Source: Chthoniobacteraceae bacterium
Lineage (GTDB): Bacteria; Verrucomicrobiota; Verrucomicrobiia; Chthoniobacterales; Chthoniobacteraceae
Assembly: GCA_031409655.1 (NCBI GenBank)
Contig: JANNXQ010000236.1
Coordinates: forward strand, 1 to 11,741
Direction: 5' to 3'
Length of the DNA stretch: 11,741 nucleotides
Position 1 is the first letter of the stretch, and every line of letters begins with the position of its first letter. Shown piece by piece: positions 1-11,741 of the stretch. The notes beneath the pieces were generated by a model. That model was not told where the DNA came from. It made no database searches and saw only the letters and a list, made by a program, of their open reading frames with translations. Made by a program: the position numbers and the translations under genes.

Positions 1-31
1 TGGTTTTCGTTCGCTACACCGGGCTAAAGGT

Positions 32-69
32 GGGGGGCCCCCCCCCCCCCCTGTACCAAACTGGGGGGG
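32..69. other. Low-complexity homopolymer cluster (G6, C14, G7)
   Basis: G6 at 32-37, C14 at 38-51, G7 at 63-69, at the window edge. Confidence 0.6.
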
Positions 70-91
70 TGGGCGCCCCGACTCCTTGCAC

Positions 92-1897
92 CTACACTTC
101 GAGCAGCGGCGGCTCCCAGGCCACGCGCAGCACGCGATTACCGAGTTCCGCGCGGAAGATGATCGTCCCTTGCGGGGATGCGGCGATCTGACACTGCAAG
201 GTGTGTGCGCCTCCGGTGACTGGAGGCAGGCCGCGCACGATGAAGGACCCCAGATCCCGCGGCTCGAGCGCCGAGCCCATCTGGCCCTGCTGAATCGGCA
301 CGCGCGTCTCGGCGCGGCCATCCGGCGGCACCCGCCAGGGGAATTTTCCCTCCAGTGGCAGAGGCCGCCCGGCATGGAGCACCACGGCGCCGTCGCCATC
401 CACGATCCGGAGGAGGATCGGCCGGGCGATCACGCCCGCTTTCAGGAGTTCGATCTTCGCGCCGCTTTCCACGAGGTGGCCCTCCCAGAAGTCGATGGTC
501 GAGGCCGCGGCCTGCTTGAATTCATCCGGCGCCCCTTCCGCCGAAGCGGCCATGACGAGAGCGGCGATCGCCTCCCGCTGCTTTCCCGCGCTCTTCAGGG
601 CCTGCGCGTAGTTCCAGTTGAGGCGCGGAGAAAATTTTCCCGACGAGACCAGCGGATCGATCTCCTCGACGAGCCGCGCGGAGTCCTTGCGCTGACCGAG
701 GATCGCGCAGAAATGAAGGATCGCTTCCTCGGCCTCAGGCGCGATTTCCCGCGCTCGCTCGGCATGGCGCAGCGCCGCCGGAAGGTCGCCCCGATCGCGC
801 GCCATGGCGCTCGCGATGAGCATCGGCATCCAGGCGTTTCGCTGCTCGCCGAATTCCACCACTTTCAATTCGGTATCGAGGCTCTTGGGATCCGCCGCGA
901 CCCCAAACTTCAGCCCGATCGCTGCCTGCACGTTCGGATCGAGTTCGAGCGCCTTCTCCAGGGCCGCCGTCTCCGCAGCCGTCTCGCCCGCCGCGTTGCA
1001 AGTCTGCGCCAGATGCATCCAGCCCCCGGCCTCTTTTGGGTGCGCCTCGGTGAATTTCGTCGCCGCCTTGCGCGCCTCTTCGTGCCGCCCCACGTGCCGG
1101 TAACCGGCCGCCAGCGCGAGCAACGCACGACCGTCGTCAGGCCGCAATTCCAGGAGCATGTGGAGCGCTTGAATGGCGACCTCCGGCGCAAATCCGTCGC
1201 GCAACAACTGCTCGGCAAAAGCCTGCAACTGATCCGGATTGGCCGCGAGATGCGGGACCTGCTGCGCCGCCATCCGCGCAAAACCCGGCAGGTCGAGATA
1301 GGCGATGGACTTCGGATCATTCGGATCGCGCTGAATCCGCACCATCGCCCGCATAGCCGCGAGCCCGTCGAGCGCTGCGGAGTCGTTCGGCACCACGCGC
1401 AGGGCATTTTGAAAGGCCACCACCGCCTCATCCCGACGACCTTCCGCAGCGAGCGTCGAGCCCAGATTCACCCACACAAAACCAAACCGCGGCACCTGCT
1501 CCGCCACGGTCGTGTAGAGGGCAATCGCCTCCTCCACCTGGCCATCGTGCCGGAGGACATGCGCGCGGTGAAACTTCGTGAAAATCGTGCCGGGGTGGAT
1601 CTTCTCGATCGCATCGAGAAGCTCGCGCGCTTTGGGAAATTCATTGTCCTCGAGCGCCTCCGCGAGATCATCGAAATGCTCCGACGCCTTCAGAAAATCC
1701 GTCCATGGCGCCGTCGCCTCCGCCCCGAGATCTTCGACCGCATTCAGGAGCAAGCCGGCATCGAAAGGCGACTGCTCCGCGAGCTTCGGATCGGAATCAC
1801 CGGGCCACGGGATGCGGTGCGGCAGCCCATAGAGATCGAGTTCCCAGGCATTGCAGTCGATCCATTGAACAGCGGCGGCGGGAGTGGGTGTATCCAT
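92..1897 (-). CDS. TPR-repeat protein (601 aa) with C-terminal Hsp70/DnaK substrate-binding-domain-like beta module
   Basis: ATG at 1897 (MDTPTPAAA) follows the thrC stop; the longer ORF start at 2221 overlaps thrC. TPR-like repeats, e.g. VWVNLGSTLAAEGRRDEAVVAFQNALRVVPND and GWMHLAQTCNAAGETAAETAALEKALELDPN. Residues ~490-585 contain IQQGQ...LGSFIVRGLPP...G...QG, resembling DnaK VLQGE...LGQFNLDGINP. Confidence 0.85.
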   Translation of the reverse strand: MDTPTPAAAVQWIDCNAWELDLYGLPHRIPWPGDSDPKLAEQSPFDAGLLLNAVEDLGAEATAPWTDFLKASEHFDDLAEALEDNEFPKARELLDAIEKIHPGTIFTKFHRAHVLRHDGQVEEAIALYTTVAEQVPRFGFVWVNLGSTLAAEGRRDEAVVAFQNALRVVPNDSAALDGLAAMRAMVRIQRDPNDPKSIAYLDLPGFARMAAQQVPHLAANPDQLQAFAEQLLRDGFAPEVAIQALHMLLELRPDDGRALLALAAGYRHVGRHEEARKAATKFTEAHPKEAGGWMHLAQTCNAAGETAAETAALEKALELDPNVQAAIGLKFGVAADPKSLDTELKVVEFGEQRNAWMPMLIASAMARDRGDLPAALRHAERAREIAPEAEEAILHFCAILGQRKDSARLVEEIDPLVSSGKFSPRLNWNYAQALKSAGKQREAIAALVMAASAEGAPDEFKQAAASTIDFWEGHLVESGAKIELLKAGVIARPILLRIVDGDGAVVLHAGRPLPLEGKFPWRVPPDGRAETRVPIQQGQMGSALEPRDLGSFIVRGLPPVTGGAHTLQCQIAASPQGTIIFRAELGNRVLRVAWEPPLLEV

Positions 1898-1974: not shown

Positions 1975-3069
1975 TCAACCGATGAGCCCCATGATGGCGC
2001 TCTTCTCGGCTTTGCAGGGGATGACGCTGCCGCACTGTTCGCGGGCGATGTCGGGGTCTTTGAGGCCGTGGCCAGTGACGGTGCAGACGATGCGGCTGCC
2101 TTCGGGGATGGTCGGGAAGACGCAGCGGTCGCAGCGCTCGGCGCTGTGGCATTTGAAAAGTCCGGCGATGCTCGCGGCGCTGGCGGGTTCGGCGAAGATG
2201 CCTTCTTTCATCGCGAGCCACTGCTGCGCGAAGAGGATCTCGGCGTCGGTGACGATGTCGATGCTGCCGCCGCTCTCGCGGATCGCGCTCGTGGCCAGAT
2301 CCCAGCTCGCGGGATTGCCGATGCGAATGGCGGTGGCGATGGTTTCGGGTTTCTCAACCACTTTGCCGAAATAAATCGGTGCGCTGCCGGCAGCTTGGAA
2401 GCCGGCCATCCGCGGACGTTTTGTGGCTTTGCCGAGCTTGAAAAATTCGTCGTAGCCGAGCCAGTAGGCGCTGATGTTTCCGGCGTTGCCGACGGGGAGC
2501 ACGTGGACATCGGGCGCGTCGCCAAGTTCTTCCACGATCTCGAAGCTCGCGCTCTTCTGGCCTTGGAGACGGTCGGGATTGATCGAGTTGACGATCGAGA
2601 TCGGCTCCGTCTCGCCGATCTCGCGGACGAGCCGCAGGGCGTCGTCGAAGTTCCCGTCGATGGCCACGACCTTCGCGCCGTACATGAAGGCTTGAGCGAG
2701 TTTACCAAAGGCGATCTTGCCGGCAGGCAGCAGCACGATGCAGGCGACATTCGCCCGTGCGGCATAGGCGGCGGCGGCGGCGCTGGTGTTGCCGGTGCTG
2801 GCGCAAATCACGGCCTGCGCCCCGCGCTCGACGGCCTTGGAAAGTGCCACGGTCATGCCGCGATCCTTGAAGGAGCCCGTGGGATTCAGCCCCTCGTATT
2901 TGATATAGACCTCGCACCCGCGGCCGACGCGCTCGCTGAGTTTCGGCGAAAAGATCAGCGGCGTGCTGCCCTCATTCAGCGACACAAAGGGCGTGGCCTC
3001 CGTGACCGGCAGATACTGCTGCCATCGGGCCATCACGCCGCGATCGTGGAGTGGGCGGAATGGTTTCAC
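1975..3069 (-). CDS. thrC: Threonine synthase (short fold-type II PLP form)
   Basis: [15 protein letters not shown] (PLP lysine), [50 protein letters not shown]; directly downstream of hom. Start uncertain (GTG 3069 or 3072, or ATG 3033). Confidence 0.95.
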
Positions 3070-3080
3070 CACACTGCTCT

Positions 3081-4376
3081 TCACGAAAAATTCTCCACTC
3101 GCAAGACCTGCGGCGCTTTCTTCACGCATCCCAGCGCGCTGATGCGCTCGATGGCCCGCTGCATCTGGCCATGGGTCGCATCGTGGACCATGAGCACGAG
3201 CGAGGCGTCTTCACCTTCCTCGGACTCGGGCTGGATCATGGAGGAAATGCCGATGTTATTTTCGCCCAAAATACCGGCGACCTGGGCGAGCACGCCGGGA
3301 CGATCCTTGACGGAGATGCGCAGGTAATACTGGGTGCTGATCGCATCGAGCGGCTTGCACTGGCCGTAGAGCCCGTGCGGCATGAAGCCGCAGTCGCGCC
3401 GTGGCGATTGCAGGGCGAGCGCGGCCTCGGCGAGATCGGAGATCACGGCGCTGGCCGTCGGGTCCTGGCCGGCGCCGCGGCCGTAGAAGAGGGTGTCGCC
3501 GACGACGTCACCATGCACGGCGAGGGCATTGAAGACGCCATTCACCGAGGCGAGCACGTGGCTCTTTTTGATGAGCGTGGGATGCACGCGGACCTCGATC
3601 TGTCCCTCGGTGTCGGCCTTAATGATGCCGAGCAATTTGATGCGGTAGCCGAGGTCGTCGGCAAAGGCGATGTCGCTCGCGCGGATTTTTTCGATGCCTT
3701 CGACATAGATTTGTTTGCAGTCGATCCAGGTGCCGTAGGCGAGGGAGGCGAGGATGACGGCTTTGTGCGCGGCGTCCCAGCCGTTCACGTCGAGCGTGGG
3801 ATCGGCCTCGGCGTAACCGGCAGCCTGCGCTTCCGCGAGCGCGGCTTCAAAGCTCAGCCCGGCCTCGGTCATCCGGGTGAGGATGTAGTTGCTCGTGCCG
3901 TTGATGATCCCGTGGATGGAGGTGATGTGATTGGCGATGAAACCTTCGCGGATGGCCTTGATGATCGGGATGCCACCGGCCACTGCAGCTTCGAAGAAGA
4001 CGGGGACTTTCTTCGCGGTTGCGGCGTCGAAGATTTCTTTTCCGTGCTCGGCGAGCAGCGCCTTGTTGCCGGTGACGACCATCTTGCCGCGCTCGATGGC
4101 TCCGAGGATGAATTCGCGCGCCTCTTTCAATCCGCCCATAAGCTCGACGGCGATCTGCACCGCCGGATCATCGAGCACGTCCTGCCAGCGCGTGGTGAGC
4201 ATCTCGGGCGGCACCGCGACATCGCGAGCGCGGGCGGCGTCGCGCACGGCGACTTTGCGGACCACCAGCTCGAGGCCGAGCCGCTCCCGGAGCAGGGCAC
4301 GATTGAGCGTCAGATGCTTGAAGACACCTGCGCCGACATTCCCGAGGCCTGCTAGTCCGATGCCGATTTGCTGCAT
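3081..4376 (-). CDS. hom: Homoserine dehydrogenase with C-terminal ACT domain (431 aa)
   Basis: [11 protein letters not shown]ossmann motif, [55 protein letters not shown]-like [25 protein letters not shown] at 4376 (MQQIGIG). Confidence 0.96.
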
Positions 4377-4522: not shown

Positions 4523-6049
4523 TCAGTAGCTCTTCGCCCAGATCACACGGCAGGCGCTGGGCTTGCCGCTGAAAGGACACACGCCGGACTCCGCGGCGAG
4601 CGCATCCGGGATGCAGCGGATGGTGACTTTGAGGTCTTTCTTGATCTGCTCCTCGACCTCGCGCGAACCATCCCAATGCGCGAGCGCGAAGCCGCCGTGC
4701 GCCTCGGGCTTGGCGGCATTTTTCGGGGTAAAGAATTCGTAGAAGGCGTCCTTGCTGTCGATCGGTACGGTGTTCGCGTCGCGATACGCGGTGGCCCGGG
4801 CGAGCAGCGAATCCTGAATGGACTGGAGCACGCCGGCGACGCTGGCCACGAGATCCGCAGCGAAGGGAAATTCCTTTTCCTTATGCCCACGATCCCGCCG
4901 GGAGACGGCGACGGTACCTTTCTCAAGATCGCGCGGGCCCAGCTCGATACGAATCGGTACGCCTTTCTTGATCCACTCCCAGCTCTTCGTTCCACCGCCG
5001 ATGTCGCGCTTATCCACTTCGATGCGGATCGGCTCGCCGGCAAAGGTCTGCGCGCGCAACTCGGCGGCGAGTTTGTCCACCGCCGGGAAAACGGTGTCAC
5101 GCATTTCAGGCTTCGGCGCGACGGGGATGATGACGATGTGCGCCGGCGCGATGCGCGGCGGGAGGACGAGTCCGTCGTCATCGGAATGCGCCATGATCAC
5201 CGTGCCGATGAGCCGCGTGCTCACGCCCCAGCTCGTAGTCCAGGCGAGCTCCTGTTTGTTTTCGCGGGAGAGAAATTGGATGCCGCTGGCCTTCGCAAAA
5301 TTCTGCCCGAGGAAGTGCGAGGTGCCGGCCTGGATAGCCTTCCGATCCTGCACCATGGCCTCGATGCACAGGGTCTGCACCGCGCCGGGGAAGCGCTCGC
5401 TCTCGCTTTTTTCTCCGGTGAAGACGGGCAGCGCCAGATACTCGCGGGCGAAAGTTTCATAGACCCGTAGCATCTGCTCCGTCTCGGCGACCGCCTCCTC
5501 GGAAGTCTCGTGCGCAGTGTGCCCTTCCTGCCATAGGAATTCCGCGGTGCGCAGGAAAAGGCGGGGCCGCATTTCCCAGCGGACGACGTTCGCCCACTGA
5601 TTGATGAGGATCGGCAGATCGCGATAAGACTGCACCCACTTCGCATAGCTCGCGCCGATGATCGTCTCACTCGTCGGCCGCACCACCAGAGGCTCCGTGA
5701 GCTGGGCGGAAGGCGCCGGACGCAGCCCGCCCGCGCCATCAGACTCCAGCCGGTGATGCGTCACGACCGCGCACTCCTTGGCGAAGCCCTCCACGTGCTC
5801 CGCTTCCTTCGCGAGATACGAGAGCGGGATGAAAAGCGGGAAGTAGGCGTTCTTGTGCCCGGTCTCCTTAAACATCCGATCGAGCACCCGCTGCATGCCT
5901 TCCCAGATCCCGTAACCCCACGGCTTGATGACCATGCACCCGCGCACATCGGAATTCTCCGCGAGATCCGCCGCGCGGACGACTTGCTGATACCACTCGG
6001 GACAATCCTGCTCGCGAGTAGGCGTGATGGCGGTCTGTGGCTGGCTCAT
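4523..6049 (-). CDS. proS: Proline--tRNA ligase, archaeal/eukaryotic-like type without INS editing domain (508 aa)
   Basis: EWYQQVV, VRGCMVIKPWGY, YFPLFIP, EHVEGFAKE, RPTSET, QWANVVRWE, FLRTAEFLWQEGHT, QAGTSHFLGQNF, SWGVSTRLIG, GVPIRIELGPRD, C-terminal AKSY; ATG at 6049. Confidence 0.97.
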   Translation of the reverse strand: MSQPQTAITPTREQDCPEWYQQVVRAADLAENSDVRGCMVIKPWGYGIWEGMQRVLDRMFKETGHKNAYFPLFIPLSYLAKEAEHVEGFAKECAVVTHHRLESDGAGGLRPAPSAQLTEPLVVRPTSETIIGASYAKWVQSYRDLPILINQWANVVRWEMRPRLFLRTAEFLWQEGHTAHETSEEAVAETEQMLRVYETFAREYLALPVFTGEKSESERFPGAVQTLCIEAMVQDRKAIQAGTSHFLGQNFAKASGIQFLSRENKQELAWTTSWGVSTRLIGTVIMAHSDDDGLVLPPRIAPAHIVIIPVAPKPEMRDTVFPAVDKLAAELRAQTFAGEPIRIEVDKRDIGGGTKSWEWIKKGVPIRIELGPRDLEKGTVAVSRRDRGHKEKEFPFAADLVASVAGVLQSIQDSLLARATAYRDANTVPIDSKDAFYEFFTPKNAAKPEAHGGFALAHWDGSREVEEQIKKDLKVTIRCIPDALAAESGVCPFSGKPSACRVIWAKSY

Positions 6050-6074
6050 AGGGTGGTGCGGAGAAAGGGCGCGC

Positions 6075-6103
6075 AAACTAGACGCCGCGAACCCGCCGGG
6101 CAA
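6075..6103 (-). promoter_or_regulatory. Candidate sigma70 promoter for proS
   Basis: Minus strand TTGCCC-N17-TAGTTT, ending 25 nt upstream of the proS ATG. Confidence 0.55.
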
Positions 6104-6119
6104 GGCGCGGCTTCCGAGA

Positions 6120-6702
6120 CTAAGGAATGGGCGGCAACTCTTCGCCACCCGTCAGACGATATGCGCGGAGCAGTTCCTCCCATTGTGCGTGCAAACCGAG
6201 ACGCTCGATATGTTGCCCGGTCCATTTTCGTGACTGCTAACATGAATCGCATGTCATCAATGTGCTTGTCCTGCTCGCCTTCGCGGAAGAACTCCAGCTT
6301 GCGGAGCAGGACATACTCCGGTGGAGCGATCCAGACTTCGGCGCTCCCGAAAGGAACTCGGCGGCGATGCTTCATCGCCCAAAGATGCAGCGGGTCTCGA
6401 ACGACAAAGAACAAGTCTGCCCTAAACCCACTCTGGTGATGGTAAAGATTGAGACACCCACGGGCACCGCGGAACATCTCCGTGACGAGGGCCTCCGTGG
6501 GTGGGACGTAATAGTGCTCGCAGGGAAAAGCATCTCGAAAGAGCGCAAGTTCAGGAACCGTCAGGAGAATTACGAGGTCGATATCGTGCGTGGTGCGAAT
6601 CAGTCCATAGAACCCGGCACCGACTGAGCCCGTAACGCAGTAAAAAATGCCCGCCTGCTCGAGCGGGTCGAGGAAGACTCCAAACGGCTCAGGAAACGCC
6701 AT
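6120..6702 (-). pseudogene. MenT1/AbiEii-like nucleotidyltransferase (putative toxin), apparently frameshifted near 6215
   Basis: ATG 6702. Pol-beta NTase motif YCVTGSVGA...RTTHDIDLV, ADLF, and IAPPEYVLLRKL...KHIDDM. After DRA (6216-6214) a plausible helical end QHIERLGLHAQWEELLRAYRL...IP* continues in another frame (6215-6120), while the open frame runs on to 6046 across the proS promoter. Confidence 0.65.
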
Positions 6703-6874
6703 AGAGCATTCGCTCCCGGATTTCGCGCTCGATTTCCGCATCGGTCCATTCGGGGTGCTGGGCGGAAATGCCGCACTTGAGCATCTCACGGCCGGCCCGC
6801 TGGAATGCAGCCAGGCGTTCCAGCTTCTCGGTGGGAGTCATCCGGCGATATCCGTCGATCTGCACTGGATGCAT
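6689..6874 (-). CDS. Small helical protein (61 aa; 84 aa if started at 6943), putative MenA1-like antitoxin
   Basis: MHPVQIDGYRRMTPTEKLERLAAFQRAGREMLKCGISAQHPEWTDAEIEREIRERMLYGVS; overlaps the NTase start by 14 nt. The alternative ATG at 6943 overlaps the upstream stop (ATGA). Confidence 0.7.
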   Translation of the reverse strand: MHPVQIDGYRRMTPTEKLERLAAFQRAGREMLKCGISAQHPEWTDAEIEREIRERMLYGVS

Positions 6875-6939
6875 GGGCTCATGAGCAGAATAATTCCTCG
6901 GCTTGCGAACGAGGTGACGCAGGTGTGGATCGAGGAGTT

Positions 6940-8058
6940 TCATAGGCTTCTTAGAAACTTACCAAAGAACTCCACCCCGCGCTCCAAATCTTCCACCGCG
7001 AGGTACTCGTCCACGGTGTGCGCCTGGGCGATGGAGCCGGGGCCGAGAGCCACGGCGGGCATGCCTTTCTCGGCAAAGAAACATGCGTCGCAAAACCACG
7101 GGGCGCCGATCGGTTTTGCGCCGCATTCGCCGAGCCTGGCGATGAGCGGGTGCGCGGGATCGGTGTAGAGCGGCGGGGCGGCGTCGGCGGAGACTTCCAC
7201 ATCGGGGCAGACCTGGCGCAGGCGCTTGCGGAAGCCGGAGATGAGGCCGGGCTGAAAATGCGCGGGGACGAAGCGCATATCGACGCTGGCCTCGCAGGAG
7301 TCGGGGATGATGTTCGTCTTCGAGCCGCCGGCGATGGTGCCGATGCTGAGCGTGGAGCTGCCGAGCACGGGGTGCGTCTGCGCGGCGAATTCGGCGGCGA
7401 ATTCCGTGCGGACGACTTCGAGCACCGAGAGCATTTTCACGATGGCATTGTCGCCGAGATCGGGACGCGCGGCGTGGCCGGCTTTGCCGTGCGTCTTGAG
7501 CAGGAGAAAGGCGGAACCTTTGTGCGTGTACACGACATCGAGCCCGGTGGGTTCGCCCACGATCACGAAGTCGAAACGCTCCTCGGACGCCAGCGCGCGG
7601 GAGCCGTGCTGCGCGGCTTCTTCGCTCATCAGGCCGGCAAACCAGATCTCGTGTCCGAGGGTTGCGAGTCGGTCGCGATTTTCGCGCAGCGCCCAGAGCA
7701 TCGTGGCCATGGAGCCCTTGGTGTCGCTCGCGCCGCGGCCCCAGATTTTGCCGTCGCGCAGGTCGCCGCCAAAGGGGTCGATGCTCATCCCGGCCACGCT
7801 CACGGTATCGGTGTGCGGGGCGAAAAGGACGCGCGGTTTGCCGGGGCGATCCCCCGGCCAGTGGGCAACGATGTTCGGGCGATCCGGCAGCACCTCCCGC
7901 AGCTCGGCGTGCGCACCGAGGCTTCTGAGATACTCCACGAGCCACTCGGCGATCCGCTTTTCTCCCACTCCGGTCGTGCCGGGATGCCCGTGCGGATTTA
8001 CGCTCGGGATGCGGATGAGCGTCTGCAGGAGTTCGACGACGTTATGCGGATGGCTCAT
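6940..8058 (-). CDS. M20-family metallo-hydrolase, ArgE/DapE-like deacylase (372 aa)
   Basis: LIRIPSVNP, HTDTV, GRGASDTKG, SEE, GEPT, GKAGHAARP, NIIPD, GPGSIAQAHTVDE: full set of M20A metal ligands. Substrate cannot be assigned from sequence alone. Confidence 0.9.
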   Translation of the reverse strand: MSHPHNVVELLQTLIRIPSVNPHGHPGTTGVGEKRIAEWLVEYLRSLGAHAELREVLPDRPNIVAHWPGDRPGKPRVLFAPHTDTVSVAGMSIDPFGGDLRDGKIWGRGASDTKGSMATMLWALRENRDRLATLGHEIWFAGLMSEEAAQHGSRALASEERFDFVIVGEPTGLDVVYTHKGSAFLLLKTHGKAGHAARPDLGDNAIVKMLSVLEVVRTEFAAEFAAQTHPVLGSSTLSIGTIAGGSKTNIIPDSCEASVDMRFVPAHFQPGLISGFRKRLRQVCPDVEVSADAAPPLYTDPAHPLIARLGECGAKPIGAPWFCDACFFAEKGMPAVALGPGSIAQAHTVDEYLAVEDLERGVEFFGKFLRSL

Positions 8059-9295: not shown

Positions 9296-10000
9296 ATGGC
9301 CGACGAACCCTCCATTACCCCCCCCGAAGACGAAGCCGCCAAGGCCGAGACCATCCGGATCACCCTGCCCCCAAAAGGGGACCAACCGGTGAAGCGCGAG
9401 ACCGTGCGCATCAATCTGCCCGGCAAGCCAGCGGAGTTGTCGGGTCCGGGAACGTCTTCAGCGCCGAAGAAAGAGACGACTAAGATCGCCGTCGAAGGCG
9501 GTCTCACCCCGCCGCCGCCCCCAGGGCCTGCCGGAGCCAGGCCTTTCGTCCCCGGCGCCAAGCCCGGAGCCCCAATGCCACCCCGCCCGCTCGGTGCCAG
9601 CGGCGCGGCTCCACCGCCGAAGCCCCCATCTTTGGGCGCGCGCCCCATGGCCCCGCTCAAGCCTGCCGGCGCGCCTTCCGCCCCGCTCGCGCCCAGAGCA
9701 GCCGAGCCCGTCAAGGCCGCCCAGCCAAAGAAAGAAACCGCCCGCATCACCCTGCCACCCGAAGGCGCCAAGGTCGGAATGCCCAAGGCCACGGTGAAGA
9801 TGCAGCAGACCCAGCCGCTCGTCCGCCAGCCCTCCACCGTCCAAGCCTCACCCGTGATCCAGCAGGCCGCCCTCTCCATGTCCCCGGTCTCCGAAGGGCC
9901 GGACAGCGGCACCACCATCATGAGCATCGCCGCCTTCGTCTTTTCCCTCGCCGCCCTCGGCCTTTCCTTCTGGGCCTACAGCGCTTCTGGCGTGCAGTAA
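9296..10000 (+). CDS. Proline-rich, largely disordered protein with repeated KxETx[RK]I motifs and a C-terminal transmembrane anchor (234 aa)
   Basis: Codons mostly end in G/C like the host genes. Motifs KAETIRITLPP, KRETVRINLPG, KKETTKIAV, KKETARITLPP. Hydrophobic tail IMSIAAFVFSLAALGLSFWAY followed by 6 residues; no N-terminal signal peptide. Confidence 0.85.
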   Translation: MADEPSITPPEDEAAKAETIRITLPPKGDQPVKRETVRINLPGKPAELSGPGTSSAPKKETTKIAVEGGLTPPPPPGPAGARPFVPGAKPGAPMPPRPLGASGAAPPPKPPSLGARPMAPLKPAGAPSAPLAPRAAEPVKAAQPKKETARITLPPEGAKVGMPKATVKMQQTQPLVRQPSTVQASPVIQQAALSMSPVSEGPDSGTTIMSIAAFVFSLAALGLSFWAYSASGVQ

Positions 10001-10960: not shown

Positions 10961-11344
10961 CTAGGAGGCCGTTGGTTGTCTTGGGAAATAACGCACATTC
11001 GGAAGGTCCTTGAAGTGCTCGTCCTGCGTCCAGAGAGTCGCTTCGTGGCGCATCGCCGTCGTGTAAATGATGCTGTCTGCCAGCGTCAGCGGATGGCGCG
11101 CAGCCTCCAGCGCCAGCGCACAATCCAAGTCGATAAGTTGGCCACCCTGCATCATGCTGGCGACTTGGAGCGCGTCATCCTCGCCACGCTCCCGAAGAAC
11201 CTTCTTGAAGACCTCGTAAATGGAAATGGCCGGCACGACAAGGTTCTCAGCGTCCTCAATGGCACATGCGAACAACGGCGCGCGGTCGCTGTCCGTGAAG
11301 TATTCGAGCCAGCCGGATGAATCAACGACATTGGCAGCGCTCAC
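10961..11344 (-). CDS. vapC: VapC-family PIN-domain toxin (127 aa)
   Basis: VVDSSGWLEY, IYEV, LADSII, LWTQDEHF: the acidic PIN residues are present; ATGA overlap with the antitoxin. Confidence 0.92.
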   Translation of the reverse strand: MSAANVVDSSGWLEYFTDSDRAPLFACAIEDAENLVVPAISIYEVFKKVLRERGEDDALQVASMMQGGQLIDLDCALALEAARHPLTLADSIIYTTAMRHEATLWTQDEHFKDLPNVRYFPRQPTAS

Positions 11345-11547
11345 AGGCGGTCGTCCTCCCGTTCGATGGTCGTGTCCATGCCACGGAGGAAGCCCCGCAT
11401 CTGCTGAATCGGGCGAACGGGAATGAATTCTACTCTGTTGGCGTAGCGCAAAACACGGAGCTTCTCGCCTGCCGTGAGATGCAGTGCCTCACGAATGGCC
11501 TGTGGAATGACAACCTGAAACTTGGGTGAGAGCGTGACGGTATCCAT
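11341..11547 (-). CDS. vapB: AbrB/MazE/SpoVT-family antitoxin (68 aa)
   Basis: MDTVTLSPKFQVVIPQAIREALHLTAGEKL swapped-hairpin signature; directly upstream of the PIN toxin. Confidence 0.92.
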   Translation of the reverse strand: MDTVTLSPKFQVVIPQAIREALHLTAGEKLRVLRYANRVEFIPVRPIQQMRGFLRGMDTTIEREDDRL

Positions 11548-11588
11548 ATCGATGCGGGTATCGTATGACGATTCTCTTATCGATGCAA
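11548..11588 (-). promoter_or_regulatory. vapBC promoter overlapped by a dyad-symmetric operator
   Basis: Minus strand TTGCAT (11588-11583)-N17-TACGAT (11565-11560). Symmetric array ATCGAT-N6-ATCGT-N3-ACGAT-N6-ATCGAT at 11548-11584. Confidence 0.7.
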
Positions 11589-11689
11589 GCGCGCGAATCG
11601 GCCTAGACCTTATGGCTGCCCTCTCTGTGAGCGTCCCGTTTTCTGAAAAAGAGAAGCGGTGTGCTTGAAGGAGTGGCGAAGCGCGGGTT

Positions 11690-11707
11690 GCCCGGATAAA
11701 TCCGGGC
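11690..11707. repeat. Perfect short inverted repeat (REP-like hairpin)
   Basis: GCCCGGAT-AA-ATCCGGGC. Confidence 0.45.
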
Positions 11708-11741
11708 CTTGCCGCAGATGCGGGAGCACCGCCGGAGCGGC

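Follow-up and report, generated by a model that had tools for sequence, protein, structure and literature searches.

The peptide-binding domain of Hsp70 is normally regarded as inseparable from its ATPase, and the precedents for a lidless or captured substrate-binding domain (SBD) are all eukaryotic (FAP363 and Ssz1). In the yeast ribosome-associated complex, the β-subdomain of the SBD (SBD-beta) of Ssz1 is described as allosterically uncoupled and confined to an ATP-like state of low affinity; a partner supplies extra strands that complete it, and a Leu-Pro motif of Zuo1 binds the lidless domain as a pseudo-substrate (PMC7083937). FAP363 from Chlamydomonas cilia carries Mn repeats at its N-terminus (PMC10973386, PMC8144581) and an HSP70-like globular domain, for which an adaptor role linking two molecules of RIB43a is described (PMC7590530). 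The mirror case, an Hsp70 without a peptide-binding domain, is reported for bacterial GAP1-N2 systems (PMC7159879). Here, we examined a stretch of 11,741 nucleotides from a Chthoniobacteraceae bacterium (assembly GCA_031409655.1, contig JANNXQ010000236.1; hereafter, the window), which encodes on its minus strand (92..1897) a 601-amino-acid protein, P0001, composed of a tetratricopeptide repeat (TPR) solenoid and a C-terminal Hsp70 SBD-beta, as defined by the open reading frame, Pfam, a structural model, and a 71-sequence alignment. This architecture is conserved and apparently undescribed; we found no published account of the TPR-SBD family or of a TPR-SBD fusion, with subscription journals and supplementary domain-architecture tables lying outside the coverage of the search.

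Residues 492-595 (113..424, minus strand) form a complete eight-stranded Hsp70 SBD-beta equivalent to DnaK residues 397-500. Searched alone, the window domain matched Pfam HSP70 below the gathering cut-off (9.6-10 bits, E 0.25; cut-off 20.6 bits), and a single-sequence search of the Protein Data Bank (PDB) gave a best E-value of 0.063, with Hsp70-family chains accounting for 14 of the 19 matches listed. A profile of 18 homologous C-terminal domains retrieved the DnaK SBD at E 4.5e-8, and the best 60 of its 71 rows were all Hsp70 SBDs. Pfam HSP70 weakly matched 12 of the 18 family members (best E 2e-4), and HSP70 ranked first in a feature search of the ESM Atlas (0.93, 181 of 256 features). An AlphaFold2 model of residues 471-601, built from 18 sequences, contains no helix and displays the eight SBD strands (494-498, 501-507, 515-522, 530-537, 547-555, 566-573, 578-585, and 591-595) at a predicted local distance difference test (pLDDT) score of 92.8. 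All Foldseek matches listed for this model were Hsp70s (best E 1.7e-6, template-modeling score 0.70), and VIA aligned it to an Hsp70 SBD at Z 13.2 with a root-mean-square deviation (rmsd) of 2.6 Å over 110 residues. In a wide VIA search, the top seven chains were either Hsp70-family members or one ciliary chain (Z 6.1-12.1), with the first unrelated fold at Z 5.2. The SBD-beta homology that the initial annotation had drawn by eye is thus upheld by profile and fold alike.

The structural register runs at a constant offset of 95 to Escherichia coli DnaK numbering, with end points pairing 486 with 391 and 594 with 499 (4r5l, 4e81, 1dky). Because the offset is constant, W521 corresponds to F426, confirming the tryptophan previously assigned to that pocket position. 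This register was preferred over a single-sequence HMMER alignment, which displaced strand 1 by two residues. DnaK residues 410-492 were taken from the profile alignment, and PMC4664246 and PMC6017645 supplied the roles of I401, T403, M404, F426, A429, Q433, V436, I438, D148, D393, K414, N415, Q442, L454, D481, and L484. Identity to DnaK is only ~13-15%, and the family has near-invariant counterparts of DnaK P419, Q442, G443, L454, G455, F457, and A488. Features specific to the domain relative to DnaK include an aromatic-rich core (F519, W521, F581, and W594) and an invariant C569. DnaK position labels outside the profile alignment and the two papers are our assumption.

The remainder of an Hsp70 is missing across the family. 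A profile search limited to proteins of 231-2000 amino acids yielded 80 homologues, of which 70 span 585-608 amino acids and the 10 shorter ones are probably partial. TPR Pfam matches were present in 76 of the 80, PF00012 (HSP70) was found in none, and no homologue exceeded 608 amino acids. The protein ends within 8 residues of the domain in 78 of the 80; for the other two, a spurious first domain had been taken. In P0001, neither Pfam nor the model places an ATPase domain in residues 1-470, which are TPR or helical; the model shows no helix after residue 471 that could serve as a lid (SBD-alpha), and the chain stops six residues past strand 8. The hydrophobic interdomain linker and D393 are replaced, with columns 484-488 reading V/I, H, a variable residue, A/S, and G. 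The domain order proposed earlier, TPRs joined to an SBD-beta with neither ATPase domain nor lid, is therefore a property of the family. Lacking the ATPase domain, linker, lid, and arch over the groove (see below), the TPR-SBD protein does not belong to the Hsp70 family and at most acts as an uncoupled Hsp70 SBD. A split Hsp70 with an ATPase-only partner was also considered and rejected, as the genome yielded none beyond MreB.

Word-based searches returned this family only, although the profile matches DnaK weakly. An additional 20 short homologues (67-219 amino acids) lie mostly on contigs below 3.1 kb and are probably fragments; three are on contigs above 10 kb. Three weak matches in short reading frames proved to be typical DnaKs, interrupted by a frameshift or truncated at a contig end. 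In the ESM Atlas, clusters of HSP70-type proteins of 118-139 amino acids (Planctomycetota and Bacillota) and DUF5716_C scored 0.90-0.93 against the domain; these clusters may be fragments or may represent further SBD-beta modules that are free or lidless.

An assembly artefact at the C-terminal end was rejected, since homologues end alike and the window gene shares its stop codon with a diverged second copy on contig C166 of the same assembly. This copy (G000:C166:1-798) is 5'-truncated at the contig start and is 93.6% identical over its 266 amino acids; mqnD- and crcB-like genes come after it, an order shared with close relatives. It probably stems from a co-assembled related strain (assembly contamination 5.26%). 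Past the stop codon (window positions 1-91), the contig finishes in long G and C runs for which the other copy has no aligning sequence, and this looks like poor contig-end sequence.

A full-length AlphaFold2 model (23 sequences; mean pLDDT 92.5, predicted template-modeling score 0.79) proceeds from a small N-terminal module through a helical solenoid up to residue 471 to a region of strands only. The N-terminal module (residues 9-72; 1682..1873, minus strand) is unclassified and is delimited by near-invariant residues and the model, where it forms two short strands plus helices. W12, W18, L25-P26, and P30-W31-P32 are near-invariant: L25 is present in 112 of 117 sequences and P30, W31, and P32 in 113, the remainder being gaps. 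The module is a candidate built-in ligand or partner-binding surface. No NCBIfam match exceeded its cut-off, and residues 1-71 gave none. Hydropathy revealed no signal peptide or transmembrane helix in the 601 amino acids, and a cytoplasmic location is presumed.

The solenoid (residues 73-470; 488..1681, minus strand) is supported by Pfam TPR families falling within residues 78-451, by the model, and by fold matches. A β-hairpin is inserted at residues 182-203 (1289-1354, minus strand), with the AlphaFold2 model placing it at 185-202. Structure searches with the solenoid returned TPR proteins only, many matching equally, and an Atlas search with residues 1-215 returned generic TPRs only. Hop/Sti1, CHIP, and Tom70 share the TPR fold, and residues 218-332 superpose on Hop TPR1 (Z 16.4, rmsd 1.7 Å) in a tie with many unrelated TPRs. 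Those co-chaperones have no SBD of their own and bind Hsp70 in trans. The TPR-SBD protein lacks the Hop-type dicarboxylate clamp (K/N/N/K/R) at the positions compared: 222/226/261/291/295 are D, A, A, variable, and H, and a second set, 106/110/144/174/178, is F, H, N/H/S, variable, and G. Both sets are presumed clamp positions.

Between solenoid and SBD-beta lies a conserved extension (residues 471-491; 425..487, minus strand), recognized by structural superposition and conservation among 117 sequences. The homologous C-terminal unit includes this extension and so begins slightly before the interval 92..430 assigned to the domain in the initial annotation. We realigned 996 Foldseek chains against the 471-601 model with VIA, which reports only alignment end points. 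ATP-state, restrained, or AMPylated Hsp70s filled the top 13 rows, with Z 11.1-13.2 and a best rmsd of 2.5-2.6 Å across 109-110 residues; no isolated or closed SBD exceeded Z 10.6. In all 13 top rows, the first aligned pair joins residue 481 or 482 to DnaK 148, BiP 178, or Ssb 155. D148 of the DnaK ATPase domain is described as bonding Q442 and the backbone of L484 in the docked state (PMC4664246, PMC6017645). In the TPR-SBD family, extension residue 482 is hydrophobic in 115 of 117 sequences; at residue 483, 95 sequences carry E and 13 carry Q. Q537 (Q442 in DnaK) and L549 (L454) are invariant, the D481 counterpart is D/E in 91% (weighted), and the G482 counterpart is G in 91%. The domain is thus predicted to adopt an open, ATP-like conformation, with extension residues 481-483 predicted to lie where D148 of DnaK docks on Q442 and L484. 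Modeled in this way, the extension may latch the ATPase-facing surface and hold the domain open. The earlier suggestion that TPRs replace the ATPase domain is inexact: the ATPase face is predicted to be occupied, but by the short extension rather than by the repeats. Mutual-information coupling over the 117 sequences was discarded, being dominated by phylogeny and gap columns.

The closest structural relatives are DnaK and Hsp70 in the ATP (open, restrained) state (4b9q, 7krt, 5nro; BiP 5o4p, 5e84), whose eight-stranded sandwich aligns with the domain without gaps, at Z values reaching 13.2. The TPR-SBD protein differs from these in lacking ATPase domain, linker, and lid, in its unconserved arch and L3,4 loop, and in its fusion to TPRs. 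Ssz1 (5mb9, 6sr6; Z 8.1-9.4) likewise has a lidless SBD-beta, for which the ATP-like state of the TPR-SBD protein is a model-predicted parallel; Ssz1, however, keeps a non-hydrolyzing ATPase domain and acts on the ribosome together with a J-domain protein, whereas the TPR-SBD protein has no ATPase domain and no J-domain link. FAP363 resembles it in placing an HSP70-like globular domain on a repeat protein. The C-terminal residues 269-385 of chain 6u42_5F (PDB 6U42) match the domain model at Z 8.3, and we infer that this chain is FAP363 and that it lacks an ATPase domain. FAP363 is eukaryotic and microtubule-bound, with Mn repeats in place of TPRs. We found no sequence link between FAP363 and the TPR-SBD family, and the two domains are most likely independent captures.

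Groove residues were scored in 117 distinct full-length sequences using DnaK numbering. The I401 position is L/I/V and the I438 position V/I in all 117; the F426 position is W in 96, F in 17, L in 3, and Y in 1; and the V436 position is V/T/A in 109 and aromatic in none. In DnaK, V436F is reported to block binding (PMC4664246). A motif peculiar to this family, F519-P520-W521-R522, lies along the edge of the groove and hardly varies. The reading that we tentatively favor, at a probability of roughly 0.4, is an adaptor that works independently of ATP and serves a dedicated partner through an open groove of low affinity. Its own extension (481-483) would hold SBD-beta in the open, ATP-like shape; the open groove would weakly bind a hydrophobic segment of that partner, with no need for ATP; and the rest of the partner would be held by the TPRs and the N-terminal module. 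Weak peptide binding is described for lidless, uncoupled SBD-beta in Ssz1 and lidless DnaK (PMC7083937).

Several observations weigh against this adaptor. The pocket lining is bulkier, with T403 replaced by L in 98 of the 117 sequences, F426 by W in 96, and Q424 by F in all, and these residues could fill the pocket. V425 is P in 111, and S427 is R/K in 117. The arch is lost, M404 being D/P/E in 100 and the A429 position variable, and the peptide contact Q433 is kept in a single sequence. Loop L3,4 is shortened in 75 (by 2 residues in 20 and by 3 residues in 55), and the hydrophobic pocket residues that are kept double as core residues and need not mean binding. The preference for the open state derives from one 18-sequence model of the isolated domain; the ATP-state rows gain a few aligned residues from the ATPase domain, with VIA giving end points only; prediction may render a lidless SBD open by default; and two ATP-state rows (6asy, Z 9.7; Sse1 2qxl, Z 9.5) do no better than closed ones. 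Moreover, the D481 counterpart is Q in the window's own protein, and no partner emerged from the analysis. Because the arch, Q433, and L3,4 are unconserved, a generic DnaK-style clamp is not under selection in this family. Judged by its residues, the groove may either bind a particular segment weakly or be filled.

A filled groove leads to the possible, though doubtful, alternative that stands close behind the adaptor: a sealed SBD-beta serving as a structural cap or flat contact surface for the TPR solenoid and binding no extended peptide. The bulkier pocket, the lost arch and Q433, and the short L3,4 turn all agree with sealing, as does the conservation of the domain, which does not exceed that of the TPR body (mean top-residue frequency 0.62 versus 0.59-0.65). 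FAP363 offers a parallel, its HSP70-like globular domain being described as a filament bridge (PMC7590530). However, no sequence carries an aromatic residue at the V436 position, the DnaK loop length persists in 42 of 117 sequences, with the window protein among these, and the nearly invariant F519-P520-W521-R522 sits at the groove edge. The model also fits the open state, and there the loops would be spread apart in any case.

An unlikely elaboration would make the protein an ATP-free mini-Hsp70. In this scheme, the extension, mimicking the D148 latch, would freeze the SBD open; the solenoid would curl back such that the N-terminal Leu-Pro occupies the groove as a pseudo-substrate; and a partner bound by the TPRs would displace Leu-Pro and thereby gate client capture, placing the logic of Ssz1/Zuo1 in one bacterial polypeptide.

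Decidedly unlikely is a general ATP-independent holdase that passes unfolded proteins to DnaK/DnaJ. Ssz1, with its lidless and uncoupled SBD-beta, is described as relaying nascent chains to another Hsp70 (PMC7083937), and the source genome encodes DnaK, GrpE, and four J-domain matches. Broad client binding should nevertheless keep the arch, which is lost; there is no carboxylate clamp; and the gene is confined to one clade. Genomic context likewise disfavors a holdase. We collected 64 loci, 63 with gene calls, many of which end early at contig ends. Across the 64, genes near the TPR-SBD gene included no Hsp70 (one match was MreB-like), no GrpE, and one J-domain, using queries that gave 25 matches in the source genome. 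Among 46 recurrent neighbor families, the 36 that were scanned contained no chaperone, although direct queries did not extend to GroEL, ClpB, Hsp90, or small HSPs. Of the chaperone or adaptor role proposed in the initial annotation, peptide recognition by an adaptor remains a live option, the holdase is weakened by the unconserved arch and L3,4, and the link to the DnaK system finds no support in the loci or in the clamp-free TPRs. Elsewhere in the assembly (G000:C131:41770-46293; locus L040, also L111), a 535-amino-acid frame encodes an Hsp70 with an ATPase domain, SBD-beta, and a short C-terminal helix in place of a full lid, and adjoins a GrpE-like gene.

Upstream of the TPR-SBD gene and on the same strand, Pfam and locus comparison identify thrC, encoding a threonine synthase-like PALP enzyme (1975..3084, start approximate, minus strand), and hom, encoding homoserine dehydrogenase (3081..4376, minus strand). 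The stretch separating thrC from the gene showed no sigma-70 promoter or terminator pattern. This arrangement might be read as pointing to a factor dedicated to the assembly or regulation of Hom, ThrC, and LysC: among the 63 loci, 38 have at least one thr gene within 5 kb (thrC, 32; hom, 27; lysC, 20). The immediate upstream neighbor is thrC in 27 loci and the immediate downstream neighbor is lysC in 15, at gaps mostly below 120 bp. Yet 25 loci have no thr gene within that distance, and in genome G021 (97% complete), which lacks the TPR-SBD gene, hom-thrC-lysC is contiguous. Since the operon is intact there, it seems to have existed before the gene entered it, and one insertion event would account for the linkage, which leaves a threonine-specific role highly improbable. 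In L058, L065, L068, L070, L075, and L098, a gene of 70-90 amino acids (L121-type) stands between hom and thrC, showing that the hom-thrC operon repeatedly takes in passengers. Least probable of all is a trans-acting SBD, or decoy, whose docking target would be the DnaK ATPase domain or that of an ATPase-only Hsp70: the ATPase-facing Q442, L454, D481, G482, and L484 have conserved counterparts and ATPase-only Hsp70s are described in other bacteria (PMC7159879), but the extension is predicted to occupy the ATPase-facing surface, K414 and N415 have become A and G, the hydrophobic linker and D393 are lost, and the genome holds no such partner other than MreB.

Other features of the window lie apart from this gene. 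Two small genes (6046-6943, minus strand) sit between proS and an M20 peptidase gene, the longer without a Pfam match; by eye, we take them to resemble a nucleotidyltransferase-like toxin-antitoxin pair. At 9296-10000 (plus strand), a 234-amino-acid, proline-rich, low-complexity protein with T-x-R-I-x-L-P repeats and a C-terminal hydrophobic helix has only a weak DUF7156 match (E 0.34). A PIN-domain gene identified by Pfam, with a small upstream partner that is AbrB-like by eye, forms an ordinary VapBC-type pair at 10961-11739 (minus strand).

A strong match to the domain (E 4e-35 or better, counted by hand) occurs in 105 of the 151 genomes of the window's family; 25 others match only at ~1e-6, and 21 show no match. 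The ~1e-6 matches lie mostly in frames of 650-700 amino acids, and the three exceptions that were checked are DnaK. The gene is essentially single-copy, with two strong rows only in G000 and G506, and its presence ranges from near-universal in some genera to nil in others. A single query found the domain in none of 24 genomes from other families of the order, and none of 400 genomes from the rest of the phylum matched at E 1e-12. Named records are mostly Chthoniobacter and Chthoniobacteraceae, including Chthoniobacter flavus Ellin428. In the Ellin428 draft (L067:5001-6744), the gene falls in two frames with a break near residue 140, the only such case in the 64 loci, reflecting either a draft error or a real lesion.

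When the domain was compared with the genome's three Hsp70s, canonical DnaK scored best (28.2 bits versus 11.9 and 3.0). Because it is the best-scoring paralogue, canonical DnaK is the apparent origin, and the sequences suggest a single capture from dnaK in the clade ancestor, with domain-DnaK identity now ~15%. Between the window and C166 copies, residues 471-601 differ by 33 synonymous and 5 nonsynonymous codon changes, a pattern at the codon level that indicates purifying selection on the C-terminal domain.

An open SBD otherwise depends on the docking of an ATPase domain and, in most cases, on mutations that trap it. Should the in-cis latch prove real, the TPR-SBD protein would offer the open (ATP-state) SBD in a natural, soluble form and a direct test of whether the D148-Q442/L484 contact suffices to hold that state. 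For Chthoniobacteraceae, the gene serves as a clade marker. As a natural, conserved bacterial SBD-beta without ATPase domain or lid, and with a fold predicted at high confidence, it illustrates that this domain can be captured as a free module.

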